Shown: positions 22,629 through 29,180 of the stretch, piece after piece
How positions within the stretch are numbered: the stretch's first letter is position 1
Layout of the letters: each line of letters opens with the position of its first letter
Origin: Escherichia phage vB_EcoM_112
DNA: 64,000 bases
Sequence record: NC_024125.2
Reading direction: 5' to 3' (one strand)
Position numbers and translations under genes: made by a program
The notes under the pieces: model-generated
What the model was told of the DNA's origin: nothing
What the model saw: the letters and a program-made list of their open reading frames with translations, nothing else
Database searches by the model: none

Positions 22629-23723
22629 ATGGCAATTGTTAAAGAAATAACTGCTGATTTAATTAAAAAGTCCGGTGAGAAAATTTCAGCCGGACAGAGT
22701 ACTAAATCAGAAGTAGGAACTAAAACATACACAGCCCAGTTTCCAACTGGGCGTGCTAGTGGTAATGACACTACAGGGGACTTCCAGGTAACAGATCTAT
22801 ATAAGAATGGATTATTATTTACTGCATACAATATGTCATCTAGGGATTCTGGAAGTCTTAGATCGATGAGATCTAACTACTCTTCTTCATCTTCGAGTAT
22901 TTTACGTACAGCCAGAAACACTATCAGTAATACAGTATCAAAACTATCAAATGGATTAATATCAAATAATAATTCAGGAACAATAAGTAAAGCTCCTATC
23001 GCAAACATTCTTTTACCGAGATCTAAATCTGATGTTGATACATCATCACATAGATTTAATGATGTTCAAGAAAGCCTTATCAGTAGAGGCGGAGGTACTG
23101 CTACTGGAGTGCTAAGTAATATTGCTTCAACCGCAGTATTTGGGGCACTGGAAAGTATAACACAAGGTATAATGGCTGATAATAATGAACAGATTTATAC
23201 GACAGCCAGAAGTATGTATGGTGGTGCTGAAAATAGAACTAAAGTGTTTACTTGGGATTTGACTCCACGTTCAACAGAAGATTTAATGGCTATTATTAAT
23301 ATCTATCAATATTTTAACTATTTTTCTTATGGTGAAACTGGTAAATCTCAATATGCTGCTGAAATAAAGGGGTATTTAGATGATTGGTATCGTTCTACGT
23401 TAATTGAACCTTTATCTCCGGAAGACGCAGCTAAAAATAAAACACTATTTGAGAAAATGACATCGAGTTTAACTAACGTTCTAGTAGTTTCAAACCCGAC
23501 AGTTTGGATGGTGAAAAACTTTGGTGCAACATCTAAGTTTGATGGAAAAACGGAAATATTTGGTCCATGCCAAATACAGAGCATTAGATTTGATAAAACA
23601 CCTAATGGTAACTTTAACGGATTAGCTATTGCTCCAAACCTCCCTAGTACATTTACTCTCGAGATTACTATGAGAGAAATTATCACGTTAAACCGTGCTT
23701 CTTTATATGCGGGGACTTTTTAA
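22629..23723 (+). CDS. 48: Baseplate-tail tube junction protein gp48
   Basis: 364-aa ORF; as T4 gp48. Confidence 0.92.
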   Translation: MAIVKEITADLIKKSGEKISAGQSTKSEVGTKTYTAQFPTGRASGNDTTGDFQVTDLYKNGLLFTAYNMSSRDSGSLRSMRSNYSSSSSSILRTARNTISNTVSKLSNGLISNNNSGTISKAPIANILLPRSKSDVDTSSHRFNDVQESLISRGGGTATGVLSNIASTAVFGALESITQGIMADNNEQIYTTARSMYGGAENRTKVFTWDLTPRSTEDLMAIINIYQYFNYFSYGETGKSQYAAEIKGYLDDWYRSTLIEPLSPEDAAKNKTLFEKMTSSLTNVLVVSNPTVWMVKNFGATSKFDGKTEIFGPCQIQSIRFDKTPNGNFNGLAIAPNLPSTFTLEITMREIITLNRASLYAGTF

Positions 23724-24646
23724 TGTATTCTTTAGAGGAATTTAATAATCAAGCAATAAACGCAGATTTCCAACGTAATAATATGTTTAGCTGCGTTTTT
23801 GCGACAACTCCATCAACTAAAAGCTCTTCGTTGATAAGTTCAATTAGCAACTTTTCTTATAATAACTTGGGCCTAAATTCAGATTGGTTAGGATTGACTC
23901 AAGGTGATATTAATCAGGGAATTACCACGCTAATTACTGCTGGCACACAAAAACTGATAAGAAAATCAGGGGTTAGTAAATATCTTATTGGTGCCATGAG
24001 TCAACGTACAGTTCAAAGTTTATTAGGCTCATTTACAGTTGGTACATATTTAATTGACTTCTTTAACATGGCATATAACTCATCTGGATTGATGATATAC
24101 TCTGTAAAAATGCCAGAGAATAGATTATCCTATGAAACTGACTGGAACTATAATTCTCCTAATATTCGTATAACTGGGAGAGAATTAGACCCTTTGGTTA
24201 TTTCATTTAGAATGGATTCAGAAGCTTGTAACTATCGTGCAATGCAAGACTGGGTTAACTCCGTTCAAGACCCAGTAACTGGACTGCGTGCTTTGCCACA
24301 GGATGTCGAGGCAGATATTCAGGTTAATCTTCATTCTCGTAATGGATTGCCTCATACTGCGGTGATGTTCACTGGATGCATTCCAATATCAGTGAGCGCT
24401 CCTGAGTTATCATATGATGGAGATAACCAAATAACTACATTTGATGTTACTTTTGCGTATAGAGTGATGCAGGCTGGAGCAGTTGATAGGCAAGCTGCGC
24501 TTGAATGGCTTGAATCTGCTGCTATAAATGGTATTCAAAGCGTTCTCGGAAATAGTGGAGGTGTTACTGAACTATCTAATTCGCTTTCACGACTCAGTAG
24601 ATTAGGTGGAACTGCAGGAAGCATTTCAAATATTAGTATACTATGA
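23723..24646 (+). CDS. 54: Baseplate-tail tube initiator gp54
   Basis: 307-aa ORF directly after gp48; paralogous to gp48/gp19 family by position. Confidence 0.88.
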   Translation: MYSLEEFNNQAINADFQRNNMFSCVFATTPSTKSSSLISSISNFSYNNLGLNSDWLGLTQGDINQGITTLITAGTQKLIRKSGVSKYLIGAMSQRTVQSLLGSFTVGTYLIDFFNMAYNSSGLMIYSVKMPENRLSYETDWNYNSPNIRITGRELDPLVISFRMDSEACNYRAMQDWVNSVQDPVTGLRALPQDVEADIQVNLHSRNGLPHTAVMFTGCIPISVSAPELSYDGDNQITTFDVTFAYRVMQAGAVDRQAALEWLESAAINGIQSVLGNSGGVTELSNSLSRLSRLGGTAGSISNISIL

Positions 24647-24694
24647 CAGGGATTGTCAATTCGCAGAGTAAAATATTAGGAGCAATATAACAAC

Positions 24695-24725
24695 GGGGAC
24701 CTTTCGGTCCCCATATTTTTATTTG
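24695..24725 (+). terminator. Rho-independent terminator after gene 54
   Basis: GGGGACC-UUUC-GGUCCCC hairpin followed by AUAUUUUUAUUU. Confidence 0.6.
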
Positions 24726-25009
24726 CGGAATGAAATGAAAGCAGAAACTGAAGCAACTAAACTGTCTTCAATATAAACTTCAATTTTTACCGGAGCTTCT
24801 GACTCAAATTTACCTGTTACTACACCCTGAAAAATACTTTCAGTCTGTTCTGGCTTTGAAAAATTTTCAGAAGGAAAAATTCCAAACTTTTTATCTGTTC
24901 CGAAAATTTTGATAAATTCATCATAAACTGCTTCATTAAAAGCATTATCAGCAGGAATAACGCCTTCAACTACAAGTTCTTGACCTAAAAAGCGTAAAGA
25001 AGATTTCAT
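24719..25009 (-). CDS. Hypothetical protein (T4 alt.-3 position)
   Basis: 96-aa ORF with ATG start and GAGGA SD, last ORF of the minus-strand block. Confidence 0.65.
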   Translation of the reverse strand: MKSSLRFLGQELVVEGVIPADNAFNEAVYDEFIKIFGTDKKFGIFPSENFSKPEQTESIFQGVVTGKFESEAPVKIEVYIEDSLVASVSAFISFRK

Positions 25010-25016
25010 TTTGTGT

Positions 25017-25070
25017 TCCTCATGTTATGTCAGTAAGACTACTATAACACAACACGAGGGACTTGTAAAC
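25017..25070 (-). promoter_or_regulatory. Early (sigma70-type) promoter plus leader, copy A of an exact 54-bp repeat
   Basis: Minus strand GTTTACA-N17-TATAGT then leader ending in GAGGA SD; identical to 38610..38663. Confidence 0.6.
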
Positions 25071-25245
25071 TACATTTTGAACTTTTTAGTACGCGTAATA
25101 GGCATGCGTCGATTTTATACTGTTTCATTGTTTGAAGAGCAGTATCAAAAACAGCATTAATGACACCAATTGGATTTCCACCCAAGTTTTTAAGCTTAAC
25201 TAATGATAGTTTCTCATTAACACCTATCATTACGATATGCATCAT
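25042..25245 (-). CDS. Alt N-terminal-domain paralog fragment (distal piece; T4 alt.-2-like)
   Basis: 67-aa ORF resembling Alt residues ~64-130 (MMHIV...QTM.QYKIDAC.LR.LKS). Confidence 0.55.
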   Translation of the reverse strand: MMHIVMIGVNEKLSLVKLKNLGGNPIGVINAVFDTALQTMKQYKIDACLLRVLKSSKCSLQVPRVVL

Positions 25246-25427
25246 TTTATCGCCCGGCTTAACGTTTTATTCGTATCACCGCCAGAGGTGTATGTACAAA
25301 ATCTAAATCCAGGAAGCACGCTTTCTTCGCCGGCTTGAATAGCAAAAATTTGTGGTATTTTATGCTTAGGATTTAAGTTAACAACCGGCGCCGAAGCGCC
25401 GTCAAATAATTCTGTAATAAGTTCCAT
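25242..25427 (-). CDS. Alt N-terminal-domain paralog fragment (proximal piece; T4 alt.-1-like)
   Basis: 61-aa ORF MELITELFD...NLNPK.KIPQIF...PGFR.CTYTSGGDTN resembling Alt residues 2-56; out of frame with the next piece. Confidence 0.55.
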   Translation of the reverse strand: MELITELFDGASAPVVNLNPKHKIPQIFAIQAGEESVLPGFRFCTYTSGGDTNKTLSRAIK

Positions 25428-25430
25428 GAT

Positions 25431-27479
25431 TTATCCTTGAACGAACTTGTAAGGCATGTTTGCAATATCTATGCAAGACGCAATAATTCCAAGAGATGAT
25501 TCTACTTTCTGTTTAACATTTGATGAAACAAATGATGCAAAGTCAACTCTATCTTCTATATCACCTGTCATTGTAACCAATTCACCAGTTTCCATTAAAC
25601 GGTCACCGTCATAAATTACCGATTCGGTGAGTTCTTCTGTGGTCATAACTTCAGCTTGAATAAGCTTGTTGTTAGTTCTAACTGTTCCATCGTTGTAAGA
25701 TGCATCGGTTATTTTATTAACTTTGACCATTAATCCACGTGGCAAAATGACTTCCATTTCATTTGAAGGCGCTAAACTTCCACCGGGTAAAACAACATTG
25801 ACCTTATCAGCCCCAGTAATAACCCATCCAATTCCAACTAAATTATCGCTAGAATTTACAAGTCCTTCATCAGTTTTATCAATAGAAACACTTAAACGCT
25901 TTTCGTCTGGTAAAACACCCACAGATGAATCAGTCATCCAAGTACCAAAAATATTTGGATATAATGATGTTGACACAAAGTTTCTAAAATAAAAAACTCG
26001 ATTTTTTACCATTGCTTCATATATTGAAGGTAACATTCGTTGTGAACGATACAAAGTAATACCTTTTGGTAATCGTTCACCATTTTTAAAGGCTGAATCT
26101 AAATTATCAATGGCTTGTTCTATTTCAGGTGCTGTTAAAATACTTGTACGCTCATCTGGATTATATAATCCCAAAAGAGCATTATTTATGTCTACATATC
26201 CTGAACCTACATATTCACGAATTCCGCGTTTTTGCGCTGGTGTGTATTTAGATGAATCTTTATTTTCGACTATAGGATGTAATGACCATCCAGCGGTAAG
26301 AGCATATCCACGTAATTCTCTTCGAATAATCTTTGTTTTTATTGCATTCCAAGAATTTTGTACTAACTCATTTGCAGCATCTTGGTTTAAATGCGAATGT
26401 CTGTTAATATTTCTTTCAAACCAAGCACCTTTATATTTTTCTAAAGTATCATCGACGATAGAAGCAATAGTTTCTAAAGTTTTTATTGAAGTAATAGATT
26501 CTTTTCGTAATTTTTCTAAAGCTTTATTTTTTATTTCTGCATTAATAATGGATTCTTTATCTTCAGGAATTATAGAAGCTTCTCTGAATGCCATCCCAGC
26601 TGTAACACTGCTAAGAGCATTCTCTAGTGCAAATCCTGAAGTAGAAATTACCGTTAATTCATTAGAATCAGAAATTAAAGGAGCGTCCGCTGGTTTATTT
26701 AATTCTGCCGCTGAAGCCTCAAATTTTTGAAACATCGGTGTTTCAAATCTAGAAGATTCCAATGACTGACTTTGTGCAATTGCTCTACGGGAAATTTTAA
26801 CTTTAACGATTACAGCTTGGTCAGAACGTTTATCATTTTCTTGTGCAATAGATGCTGCAATTGCCTCATTTTTAGTTACTTGAGCTCCAGTATCTTTATT
26901 GATATAAACATCACCGACCTTCGATTCAACTTTAGTAAAGAGCTCGGTACTAATTTCCGGAACCCCTGGAATGTCTTCTAGTGATACATTTTTGCGATGT
27001 ATAAGAATATATGCATACTTTTTATCATAATCCCAGAGTTCCTTAAGAAGGACGTATCTGCCACCTGAACGACTACGGATAAGTCTATCAGCAATAACTT
27101 GAATTTGTCGAGCTTGGCCAGCAGTTTTAGACTTAAGAATACGAAGCATACAAGCATCAATTTTATACTGACGCATTGTTTGCAATGCAACAGTAAAAAC
27201 CGAATTGATATAATTAATTGGGCTTGGACCAAGACCTTTCAATTTAGCAATTGAACCTTTAGCGGTTAATGTAAAAGGAACAATATGCATCATTTTATCG
27301 CCCATCTTTAAATCACGATTAGTATCACCTCCAGATGTATAGGTACATAAACGAAAGCCTGGTTGTTCAATTGCGTCATCAACATGAACTGAAAAAATTT
27401 GCGGTATTTTCTTCTTTGGATTTAAGTTTGTAATCGGAAGAGTAGTATCTTCGTCAAATAATTCTGTAATTAGTTCCAT
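25431..27479 (-). CDS. alt: ADP-ribosyltransferase Alt (packaged RNA-polymerase-modifying enzyme)
   Basis: 682/683-aa ORF (tandem ATGs; the second has better SD spacing); sequence and size as T4 Alt. Confidence 0.92.
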   Translation of the reverse strand: MELITELFDEDTTLPITNLNPKKKIPQIFSVHVDDAIEQPGFRLCTYTSGGDTNRDLKMGDKMMHIVPFTLTAKGSIAKLKGLGPSPINYINSVFTVALQTMRQYKIDACMLRILKSKTAGQARQIQVIADRLIRSRSGGRYVLLKELWDYDKKYAYILIHRKNVSLEDIPGVPEISTELFTKVESKVGDVYINKDTGAQVTKNEAIAASIAQENDKRSDQAVIVKVKISRRAIAQSQSLESSRFETPMFQKFEASAAELNKPADAPLISDSNELTVISTSGFALENALSSVTAGMAFREASIIPEDKESIINAEIKNKALEKLRKESITSIKTLETIASIVDDTLEKYKGAWFERNINRHSHLNQDAANELVQNSWNAIKTKIIRRELRGYALTAGWSLHPIVENKDSSKYTPAQKRGIREYVGSGYVDINNALLGLYNPDERTSILTAPEIEQAIDNLDSAFKNGERLPKGITLYRSQRMLPSIYEAMVKNRVFYFRNFVSTSLYPNIFGTWMTDSSVGVLPDEKRLSVSIDKTDEGLVNSSDNLVGIGWVITGADKVNVVLPGGSLAPSNEMEVILPRGLMVKVNKITDASYNDGTVRTNNKLIQAEVMTTEELTESVIYDGDRLMETGELVTMTGDIEDRVDFASFVSSNVKQKVESSLGIIASCIDIANMPYKFVQG

Positions 27480-27502
27480 CATATCCTCTCTAGTGTTTAT
27501 TC

Positions 27503-27510
27503 TATTTATA
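27503..27510 (-). promoter_or_regulatory. T4-type late promoter (TATAAATA on minus strand) upstream of alt
   Basis: Plus-strand TATTTATA about 21 nt upstream of alt start. Confidence 0.55.
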
Positions 27511-27515
27511 AAATT

Positions 27516-27533
27516 AAAGGCCCGAAGGCCTTT
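27516..27533 (-). terminator. UUCG-tetraloop hairpin downstream of the gene 30 operon
   Basis: Minus-strand AAAGGCC-UUCG-GGCCUUU overlapping the stop of the 62-aa ORF. Confidence 0.45.
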
Positions 27534-27720
27534 AGTAATCTAGTGGTAAGAGAGTACGATATATTTCAAACTTTGGTCCTTTTTCATAGGCATCAAATGT
27601 TTCTGTGAATTTATTATAAGCGTATGCATCTACAAATTCGAGAACGATTTGTGATACAGAAGTAGAAACATCTCCACCTTCTTTTTGAGCAATGACAATT
27701 GCTTCTAAGTAAGCTTTCAT
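27532..27720 (-). CDS. Hypothetical 62-aa protein translationally coupled to DNA ligase
   Basis: ATG overlaps gp30 stop (ATGA); no recognisable domain. Confidence 0.55.
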   Translation of the reverse strand: MKAYLEAIVIAQKEGGDVSTSVSQIVLEFVDAYAYNKFTETFDAYEKGPKFEIYRTLLPLDY

Positions 27721-29180
27721 AGACCAGTTACCTCATGAAAATCGCCAAATACATCTTCGAACGTATTAGCTTTAGTTTTATCTTCGCGTAAACGAATCGC
27801 AATCGGAAGAAATAATTTAACGTAATCAGTGCGGCCATCAGATTTTAACCAACCGTTGCATTCGCACTCTAGAATTTTTCCAATATAATAATTTTGGTTT
27901 TCCATAATGCGAGTACGGTCAAGTTCATGCGATTTTACACCGGCTTTATCTTTTAAGCCTGAACCAGCATTTACCTTAATTTTTCCACACTCTGACTCAA
28001 GAATAAATCCACCTGCTTTAGTAGGGTCTTTACGGTGAGGATAAATTCCTACAATTTTTAAATCAACATCAATTACTTCTTTAAATTTATAAAGATTTTT
28101 TGAACGGGCATTTTCCCATAACCCATCAACGTTTTTGAGAATAATACCTTCAAGACCTTGGTCAATATACTTTTTATAAATTACCTTGGCTTCGTCTAGG
28201 TTATTTACTACCTGGTTTTCAATTAAAATTACTTTATCATAGCCTGATGTCATTTGTTCTAGTTTAGAAAAACGTACATCATATTTCAAACGAAATGCAG
28301 GAAGACCGTATATTTCTACCAACGGTACATAATCCCAGACCTGAAACTTCATGCATTGAGCTTCTTTTTCAGAAATGGTTCCCTTTAAAGATTTATTAGC
28401 GATTCCATTAGAAGTAGTACGTGATTCAGCTACTTCGGCGAATTCTTTGGCTTTACTAATTTCAGGATAAGCATCAAAAAGAAAATCTAGGCCTTCTGGT
28501 TCCTTTTTAACTTGCTCATGGTATACCAATTCGCCATCAATTAACACACCTTCTGGATGAATCTGGCGGGCTTCAGCAGTCATTTTGATTAACTCTTCCT
28601 TAAGAAGATCTAATCCTAGATATTCATTACCAGCTCGTGATAAAAGACGAACATCATCTAATTCATCACCTCTGACTTCGGCAAAGCACCGAGCTCCATC
28701 AGCTTTTAATTGGGCAAAGGCTGGAAATTTGATATTCTTATTAATGCCTTTTTCATCATAAGAACTTGCCAGCATTTGAGGTTGTTCAGGAATTAAACCT
28801 GGCCAAACTTTGTTTGCAATAGATACTGAAGCACCGCATTCAAGGTCTCGCATCATCACCCGACGCAAAACTTCAACATCATCTTTTTTACCGTCAGTAA
28901 TATATCCAGTTAATTCCTCAATTGCTGCATTGCCAGTTAATTTCCGAGTAGCTAACGTGAATTCAATGAAGTCAAGCATATCGGTAATAGTCAGCATTCC
29001 AAAACTCTGGGTAGCAATACCAGGTTTAGGCCATTTCTTGATATAATACTGCAACCCACGAGAATAAGTTAAACGATATACTCGTTTAAGCAATTCATTA
29101 TCTTTATTCTTTTCAAGAATTGCTTGCTTCTGCTTAGTTGAACCAATAGATGCTATTTCGTTCAGAATTTTAAGAATCAT
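27717..29180 (-). CDS. 30: ATP-dependent DNA ligase gp30
   Basis: 487-aa ORF MILKILNEIASIGSTKQKQAILEKNKDNELLKRVYRLTYSRGLQYYIKKW...; active-site lysine motif KADGAR; matches T4 DNA ligase. Confidence 0.96.
   Translation of the reverse strand: MILKILNEIASIGSTKQKQAILEKNKDNELLKRVYRLTYSRGLQYYIKKWPKPGIATQSFGMLTITDMLDFIEFTLATRKLTGNAAIEELTGYITDGKKDDVEVLRRVMMRDLECGASVSIANKVWPGLIPEQPQMLASSYDEKGINKNIKFPAFAQLKADGARCFAEVRGDELDDVRLLSRAGNEYLGLDLLKEELIKMTAEARQIHPEGVLIDGELVYHEQVKKEPEGLDFLFDAYPEISKAKEFAEVAESRTTSNGIANKSLKGTISEKEAQCMKFQVWDYVPLVEIYGLPAFRLKYDVRFSKLEQMTSGYDKVILIENQVVNNLDEAKVIYKKYIDQGLEGIILKNVDGLWENARSKNLYKFKEVIDVDLKIVGIYPHRKDPTKAGGFILESECGKIKVNAGSGLKDKAGVKSHELDRTRIMENQNYYIGKILECECNGWLKSDGRTDYVKLFLPIAIRLREDKTKANTFEDVFGDFHEVTGL

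Follow-up and report, generated by a model that had tools for sequence, protein, structure and literature searches.

The interval directly downstream of the alt gene in Escherichia phage vB_EcoM_112 (positions 25042-25427) is very probably a pseudogene remnant, namely what is left of a second full-length alt gene after a deletion and a frameshift had broken it. In the 64,000-nucleotide stretch of sequence record NC_024125.2 analysed here (the window), the interval shows approximately 99% identity with two parts of the gene for an Alt paralog of 685 amino acids: its first 117 codons and its last 81 bases. The intact form of this paralog is the majority state in Tequatrovirus, the T4-type deletion being a minority allele.

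Two short ORFs lie between alt and alt.-3

The genes surrounding the interval are laid out as follows.

27717-29180, minus strand: DNA ligase.
27532-27720, minus strand: alt.1.
25431-27482, minus strand: alt, packaged ADP-ribosyltransferase, 683 amino acids from the first ATG (ORF list; alt in the T4T annotation).
25242-25427, minus strand: alt.-1 ORF, 61 amino acids (ORF list).
25042-25245, minus strand: alt.-2 ORF, 67 amino acids (ORF list).
24719-25009, minus strand: alt.-3, 96 amino acids, DUF5498 (Pfam PF17602, E 5.4e-64).
Plus strand, convergent with the alt-side genes: baseplate genes 48 and 54.

The minus-strand order is DNA ligase, alt.1, alt, alt.-1, alt.-2, alt.-3. Identity between positions 24600 and 27600 amounts to 99.3% with Escherichia phage vB_EcoM_G8 and to 97.5% with T4; the source phage is T4-like, a member of Tequatrovirus, and G8-like rather than T4 itself. 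The T4T record names the three small ORFs alt.-1, alt.-2 and alt.-3, and the ORFs at 25242-25427 and 25042-25245 are the alt.-1 and alt.-2 of T4. An earlier note on this DNA, made from the letters alone, had described both ORFs as following the alt stop; they are found, on the minus strand, at the coordinates it gave, the peptide strings that it quoted are correct, and the comparison with the T4 alt.-1/alt.-2 region that it proposed shows the ORFs to correspond. The T4 pair (UniProt P39495 and P39494) has the same position, junction, A4 frameshift and ORF lengths (61 and 67 amino acids) as the window pair and presents no substantive difference from it. The alt.-2 protein is identical in T4T and the window, while the alt.-1 proteins differ at two amino acids. 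In every genome examined, alt.-3 is intact and lies downstream of either the remnant or the intact paralog.

The Alt protein of the window matches Pfam family PF03496 (ADPrib_exo_Tox) over residues 375-615 (E 1.4e-34), and alt is the intact upstream paralog that the alt.-1 and alt.-2 fragments resemble. The gene begins with two adjacent ATG codons (27477-27482, minus strand; MMELITE…); the T4 annotation uses the second, which would be at 27479, and the choice affects the numbering of the ITE-6 protease site. The length of the alt coding sequence varies, being 2049 nt in T4, G8, G4498 and the window and 2094 nt in JEP6, FJ1, ELT1, Shfl2, PE37, RB6, ime09 and NBG2. On the other side of the locus, gp54 (23723-24646, plus strand) has 307 amino acids in the window and in vB_EcoM_G8, as compared to 321 in T4T; the window and T4T proteins are 99% identical up to residue 304, after which the window protein ends early (…ISNISIL* vs …ISNINTM…).

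The two ORFs resemble the N-terminal portion of Alt

BLASTP aligned alt.-1 with residues 2-58 of the window's Alt (36/57 identical, E 6e-24) and alt.-2 with residues 64-118 (35/55 identical, E 1e-21). These matches, at 63-64% amino-acid identity, bear out the homology to the Alt N-terminus on which the earlier note was built. That note had the fragments recapitulating Alt residues ~2-130; the similarity does start at residue 2 but stops at about residue 118. Alignment with the 5' end of alt at the DNA level, which the note had suggested as a check, gave 68% identity over 350 nt and a local score of 110, far above the scores of 300 shuffles (11.5 +/- 1.4, maximum 16). In profile searches, alt.-1 matched PHROG 23015 over positions 1-61 of 61 (E 1.7e-46) and alt.-2 matched PHROG 15247 over positions 1-67 of 67 (E 8.8e-50). 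Both fragments also matched the Alt-like PHROG 802, at profile positions 2-59 and 64-120 (E 7.7e-19 for alt.-1).

A Pfam search found no domain in either fragment. In particular, the ADP-ribosyltransferase catalytic domain is absent from both, and the paralog's domain sits inside the 1699-bp deletion described below. T4 Alt (NAD+--arginine ADP-ribosyltransferase) is intact, catalytic and processed at both ends, whereas the window fragments have neither the catalytic domain nor the C-terminal LTE site; the MELITE start of T4 Alt, with its gp21 ITE-6 motif, is also present in Alt.-1. A sequence search of the PDB with Alt matched the C-terminal ART domain only (CdtA-type toxins) and returned no structure over the N-terminal region. 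AlphaFold2, run on the single sequence of Alt residues 1-250 to see whether residues 1-117 form a complete domain, gave a model of too low confidence to be informative (mean pLDDT 43.6, with residues 1-113 below 50).

Relatives carry a full-length second alt gene at the same site

When the 3-kb window segment was used as a query, several relatives matched it as two pieces spanning 4.7 kb. Phage vB_EcoM_G10400 carries, between alt and alt.-3, a 2058-nt gene (685 amino acids) annotated as an ADP-ribosyltransferase. The remnant aligns with the G10400 sequence at positions 1-158 (1 mismatch), 160-338 (3 mismatches) and 2038-2118 (0 mismatches), that is, with 4 mismatches and one 1-base gap in 337 aligned bases, followed by a further 81 identical bases that include the old stop codon. 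The 685-amino-acid paralog is 41% identical to Alt overall; inspection of the alignment shows the first ~235 residues to be markedly better conserved. Its ADP-ribosyltransferase domain (Pfam PF03496) spans residues 413-620. The full-length T-even paralog and the window remnant share their flanking genes, the UUCG hairpin and the promoter-like site downstream (see below); the paralog differs in its 685 amino acids, in its ADP-ribosyltransferase domain and in the purifying selection to which it appears subject, the window having lost 1699 bp including the domain.

A scan of IMG/VR with Alt.-3 yielded 5 loci, and GenBank phage records were therefore sampled. The 1.67-kb segment missing from the window is present in 402 records of the GenBank phage collection (records containing at least 80% of the segment), and the 3' end of the paralog is annotated as Alt-like in T2. 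Within the first 116 codons of 11 intact paralogs, 35 variants are synonymous and 2 non-synonymous, suggesting that the intact gene is under strong purifying selection in the portion examined. The intact paralog keeps two motifs similar to the gp21 sites of Alt, MELITE at the N-terminal end and QLEE at the C-terminal end.

The names given to this gene are inconsistent. In RB6, ime09, Shfl2, G10400, T2 and others it is annotated as 'alt.-2', 'alt_1/alt_2' or 'Alt-like RNA polymerase ADP-ribosyltransferase', with the result that 'alt.-2' denotes the 685-amino-acid paralog in RB-type phages (Shfl2, RB6, ime09) and a 67-amino-acid fragment in T4. In several records the 67-amino-acid fragment is itself labelled 'RNA polymerase-ADP-ribosyltransferase', despite having no catalytic domain.

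A deletion and a one-base loss distinguish the remnant from the intact gene

The alignments locate the following features in the interval.

25265-25268, minus strand: A4 run, site of the frameshift (alignment to intact paralogs).
25081-25089, minus strand: deletion junction, with a single copy of the 9-mer CTAAAAAGT (alignment to the G10400 paralog).
25042-25080, minus strand: former 3' end of the paralog, comprising its last codons, the stop codon TAG (25070-25072) and 3' untranslated bases.

An A5 run, AATAAAAACG, is present in 11/11 intact paralogs examined, whereas the window reads AATAAAACG at positions 25263-25271. The loss of one base in this run shifts the frame at codon 54. Codons 1-54 of alt.-1 are those of the lost Alt paralog, with the MELITE start retained, and residues 55-61 (TLSRAIK) are frameshifted, being the out-of-frame translation of ancestral NVKPGDK. 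The earlier note had placed the frameshift at ...GDKMMHIV; the boundary between the ORFs is indeed there, but the mutation lies 21-24 nt upstream, in the A-run at 25265-25268. The ATG of alt.-2 overlaps the alt.-1 stop (ATGA), and the ORF returns to paralog sequence, its residues 1-56 corresponding to paralog codons 62-117; residues 57-67 form an out-of-frame tail.

In the intact paralog, CTAAAAAGT occurs twice, at codons 114-116 and four codons ahead of the stop. The 1699 bp between the start of one copy and the start of the other are missing in the window. Since 1699 is not a multiple of three, alt.-2 leaves the ancestral frame at the junction; it then passes the old TAG stop and ends 28 nt later, with the tail SKCSLQVPRVVL*. 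A short direct repeat of which one copy is kept, together with a base lost from an A-run, is characteristic of pseudogenes made by microhomology deletion and homopolymer frameshift, of which the window is a textbook example.

The distribution of these lesions was analysed in a deletion-type set of 13 sequences (the window, T4T, G8, two IMG/VR contigs, FL12, HY03, PD112, pSe_SNUABM_01, BYEP01, JEP6, FJ1 and ELT1) and a comparison set of 11 intact paralogs, 24 sequences in all. The junction is common to all 13 deletion-type sequences, and the A4 run is found in 12/13. In the GenBank phage collection, 88 records contain the deletion junction, as judged by coverage of 80% or more of a 71-nt junction-centred query. 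Among 60 rows taken as an evenly spaced sample of the matches to the whole remnant, 11 were of the deletion type and 47 of the intact type; apart from the A5 base, no net length change was found in these 47 intact-type rows.

Signs of continuing decay among relatives

Codon 6 of alt.-1 is changed from GAA to TAA (E6*) in 8/13 deletion-type genomes. This stop kills the ORF and would also abolish translational coupling to alt.-2. It replaces exactly the Glu codon of ITE-6, the motif at which gp21 cuts. In alt.-2, HY03 has a 7-bp tandem duplication and PD112 a 1-bp deletion within a T-run; both indels could be sequencing errors. In phage FL12 the deletion and the codon-6 stop occur together with an A5 run and with a stretch of alleles of the intact type; this phage looks like a recombinant of deletion-type and intact-type phages, not an intermediate.

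The variants private to deletion-type genomes comprise 7 non-synonymous or nonsense changes and 4 synonymous ones. The contrast between this 7:4 ratio and the 2:35 ratio of the intact copies (Fisher p = 1.3e-4, from 24 related, recombining sequences whose variants are not independent events) is the pattern that relaxed constraint after inactivation would be expected to leave. Across the 13 deletion-type genomes, alt.-1 and alt.-2 were not found to maintain an open frame under purifying selection. In the window, in T4 and in G8-like phages, neither ORF is interrupted.

Transcription signals and RNA elements

Three candidate elements bear on the expression of the locus.

27503-27510, minus strand: late-promoter motif TATAAATA, upstream of alt.
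25041-25070, minus strand: early-promoter-like site, GTTTAC-N-TATAGT with TG extension (10 of 12 positions in a sigma-70-like match).
25387-25400, minus strand: GC-rich hairpin GGCGC-UUCG-GCGCC, alt.-1 codons 10-14 (MFE -12.8 kcal/mol).

A terminator scan found none between the alt late promoter and the remnant, the only minus-strand terminators being at 27515-27534 and 24693-24714; the latter hairpin sits after alt.-3. Because no terminator intervenes, transcription from the late promoter would be expected to continue across alt.-1 and alt.-2. The ribosome-binding site of the paralog (AAGGA, 7 nt upstream) is kept by alt.-1. A search for MotA-box middle promoters (TGCTT-N13-17-TANNNT) gave no match on the minus strand from alt.-3 as far as mid-alt, and the RNA of alt.-1 and alt.-2 is hence most simply explained as read-through. 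In published time-resolved data on T4 infection, which bear on the proteomic check proposed in the earlier note, the alt.-1 and alt.-2 RNAs were found, as middle-class transcripts, and neither protein was (Class_P = NA; Wolfram-Schauerte et al. 2022, Table S2). In the same dataset Alt.-3 was detected and is of the early class both as RNA and as protein, and many T4 proteins of 40-70 amino acids were found (Wolfram-Schauerte et al. 2022). That shotgun proteomics missed two small proteins is weak negative evidence, and the data are from T4, not vB_EcoM_112.

The early-promoter-like site is the best sigma-70-like match in the 24600-27750 segment. In the intact arrangement it starts at the last base of the paralog stop codon and lies 32 nt upstream of alt.-3; in the window it falls within the out-of-frame tail of alt.-2. 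The predicted site probably drives alt.-3, in agreement with the early class of that gene in T4. Within the remnant interval it is likely to be the sole element with a current function, and this part of alt.-2 would appear to be conserved as a promoter and not as coding sequence.

The UUCG hairpin is perfect, is extended by a flanking C-G pair and lies 28 nt into both alt.-1 and the paralog. The paralog is its source; alt lacks it and has unrelated, AT-rich sequence in place of the GASAP codons. The hairpin is unique in the 64-kb window and kept in all 24 aligned sequences; it could act as an RNA-stability or 3'-end element of the alt message.

Alternative explanations

The earlier note took the interval for a partial copy of alt, confined to the 5' end and made by tandem duplication. 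A duplication limited to that end and frameshifted later would agree with the restriction of the similarity to the first ~118 residues of Alt and with the position of the fragments directly downstream of alt. This is nonetheless a very improbable origin, and alignment to the intact paralog refutes it: the remnant is only ~68% identical to alt DNA, as opposed to ~99% to a separate full-length gene found at the same site in ~400 records; its last 81 bases are the 3' end of that gene, old stop included; and 9-bp direct repeats border the gap. One might also suppose that a sequencing or assembly artefact hides an intact second alt gene, given that sequencing errors are common in homopolymers and that the frameshift is in one. 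The likelihood of this is negligible, however, as the same A4 run and 1699-bp deletion recur in T4T, G8, IMG/VR contigs and others, all independently sequenced, and the junction is shared by 88 records.

A further idea is that alt.-1, alt.-2 or both are small functional genes under selection, for example as decoys entering the prohead core by means of the Alt N-terminus or as modulators of the packaging of Alt or its paralog. The gp21 prohead protease cuts Alt after ITE-6 and LTE-619, as established by published mass spectrometry whose authors leave it open whether the propeptides serve to target, tether or regulate the protein; the prohead core contains Alt, at ~40 copies per head. Alt.-1 keeps the MELITE start, and its N-terminus thereby has the (L/I)-x-E motif for gp21 cleavage that in Alt is the known ITE-6 site, though as a motif only. 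Both frames being open in the window, T4 and G8, with ribosome-binding site and ATGA coupling intact and an alt.-2 protein unchanged between the window and T4T, could be taken in the same sense. We nevertheless regard selected function as improbable in view of the codon-6 stop in 8/13 genomes and the alt.-2 frameshifts in 2/13, the 7:4 ratio of private variants against 2:35 in intact copies, and the failure to detect the proteins in T4. Moreover, the conserved N-terminal region of the Alt paralogs, judged by inspection of the alignment, reaches to about residue 235, so residues 1-117 are probably an incomplete module. Competition of the fragments with Alt for packaging, as put forward earlier, has no support, given the decay seen in relatives, the apparent relaxation of constraint and the T4 protein data. 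A narrower version, co-option in the T4/G8 sublineage alone, has a slightly smaller chance still: Alt.-1, by itself or fused to Alt.-2 through slippage, might enter the prohead core or titrate a partner of the Alt N-terminus. Co-opted Alt.-1 would come late from the alt transcript and tune the amount of Alt packaged.

Slippage could also be envisaged as programmed. A -1 ribosomal frameshift at AUA-AAA-UGA (25245-25253) would fuse alt.-1 and alt.-2 into an N-terminal Alt-like protein of 128 amino acids. The tRNA-Lys on AAA would re-pair perfectly one base back (A AAA), the A site being occupied by a stop codon, and reading in the -1 frame leads on into the ATG ATG CAT... of alt.-2. Against this, GATAAAATGATG also occurs, as normal coding sequence, in both alt and the intact paralog, and on that account has been inherited and did not evolve for shifting; a stimulatory element was not identified; most relatives stop upstream at codon 6 (8/13), and the ORFs are not conserved as a unit; and no protein was detected in T4. 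Programmed fusion accordingly ranks as very unlikely, on a par with duplication of the 5' end alone.

Discussion

The pseudogene reading can be stated as a sequence of events. Two tandem full-length alt genes, alt and the 685-amino-acid paralog, would be ancestral in Tequatrovirus. In the lineage of T4, vB_EcoM_G8 and the window, the paralog would have been broken by two changes, in either order. Slipped-strand or illegitimate recombination between the 9-bp direct repeats CTAAAAAGT presumably removed the 1699 bp, so that the ADP-ribosyltransferase domain and all of the middle region were lost and the junction was left out of frame. The loss of one base in the A5 homopolymer at codon 54 would have split the rest into the overlapping alt.-1 and alt.-2. 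The remnant is likely to be transcribed by read-through from alt, its sequence drifting and its products, if any, presumably dispensable; what role remains to the DNA would probably be that of an early promoter for alt.-3 at its 3' end. Small peptides could still be made in the T4/G8 sublineage, where the open ORFs, AAGGA, the ATGA overlap and the ITE-6 motif persist.

The duplication of alt thus appears to have been full-length and old, and the truncation to be a recent deletion. That the duplication is old is suggested by the 41% identity of the paralogs and by the alt duplicates reported even in phage 44RR (Nolan et al. 2006). The T4 alt.-1 and alt.-2 were listed as paralogous duplications of alt by Nolan et al. 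(2006), and a note in the T4T GenBank record ascribes alt.-1 and alt.-2 to a deletion and a further frameshift in a second alt copy. The literature found on alt.-1/alt.-2 consists of Nolan et al. (2006) and the supplement of Wolfram-Schauerte et al. (2022) only. The origin of these ORFs is already known, and what they display is ordinary gene decay; the present analysis adds the exact lesions, their frequencies (~88 deletion-type vs ~402 intact records) and the evidence of continuing decay.

For annotation, the point to retain is that 'alt.-2' covers both a 67-amino-acid fragment and a 685-amino-acid enzyme, and that the fragments are sometimes labelled 'ADP-ribosyltransferase'. No functional study of the intact second Alt paralog was found in the literature searched. 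This intact, uncharacterised paralog, lost by T4 and kept by most of its relatives, is biologically the more interesting object.
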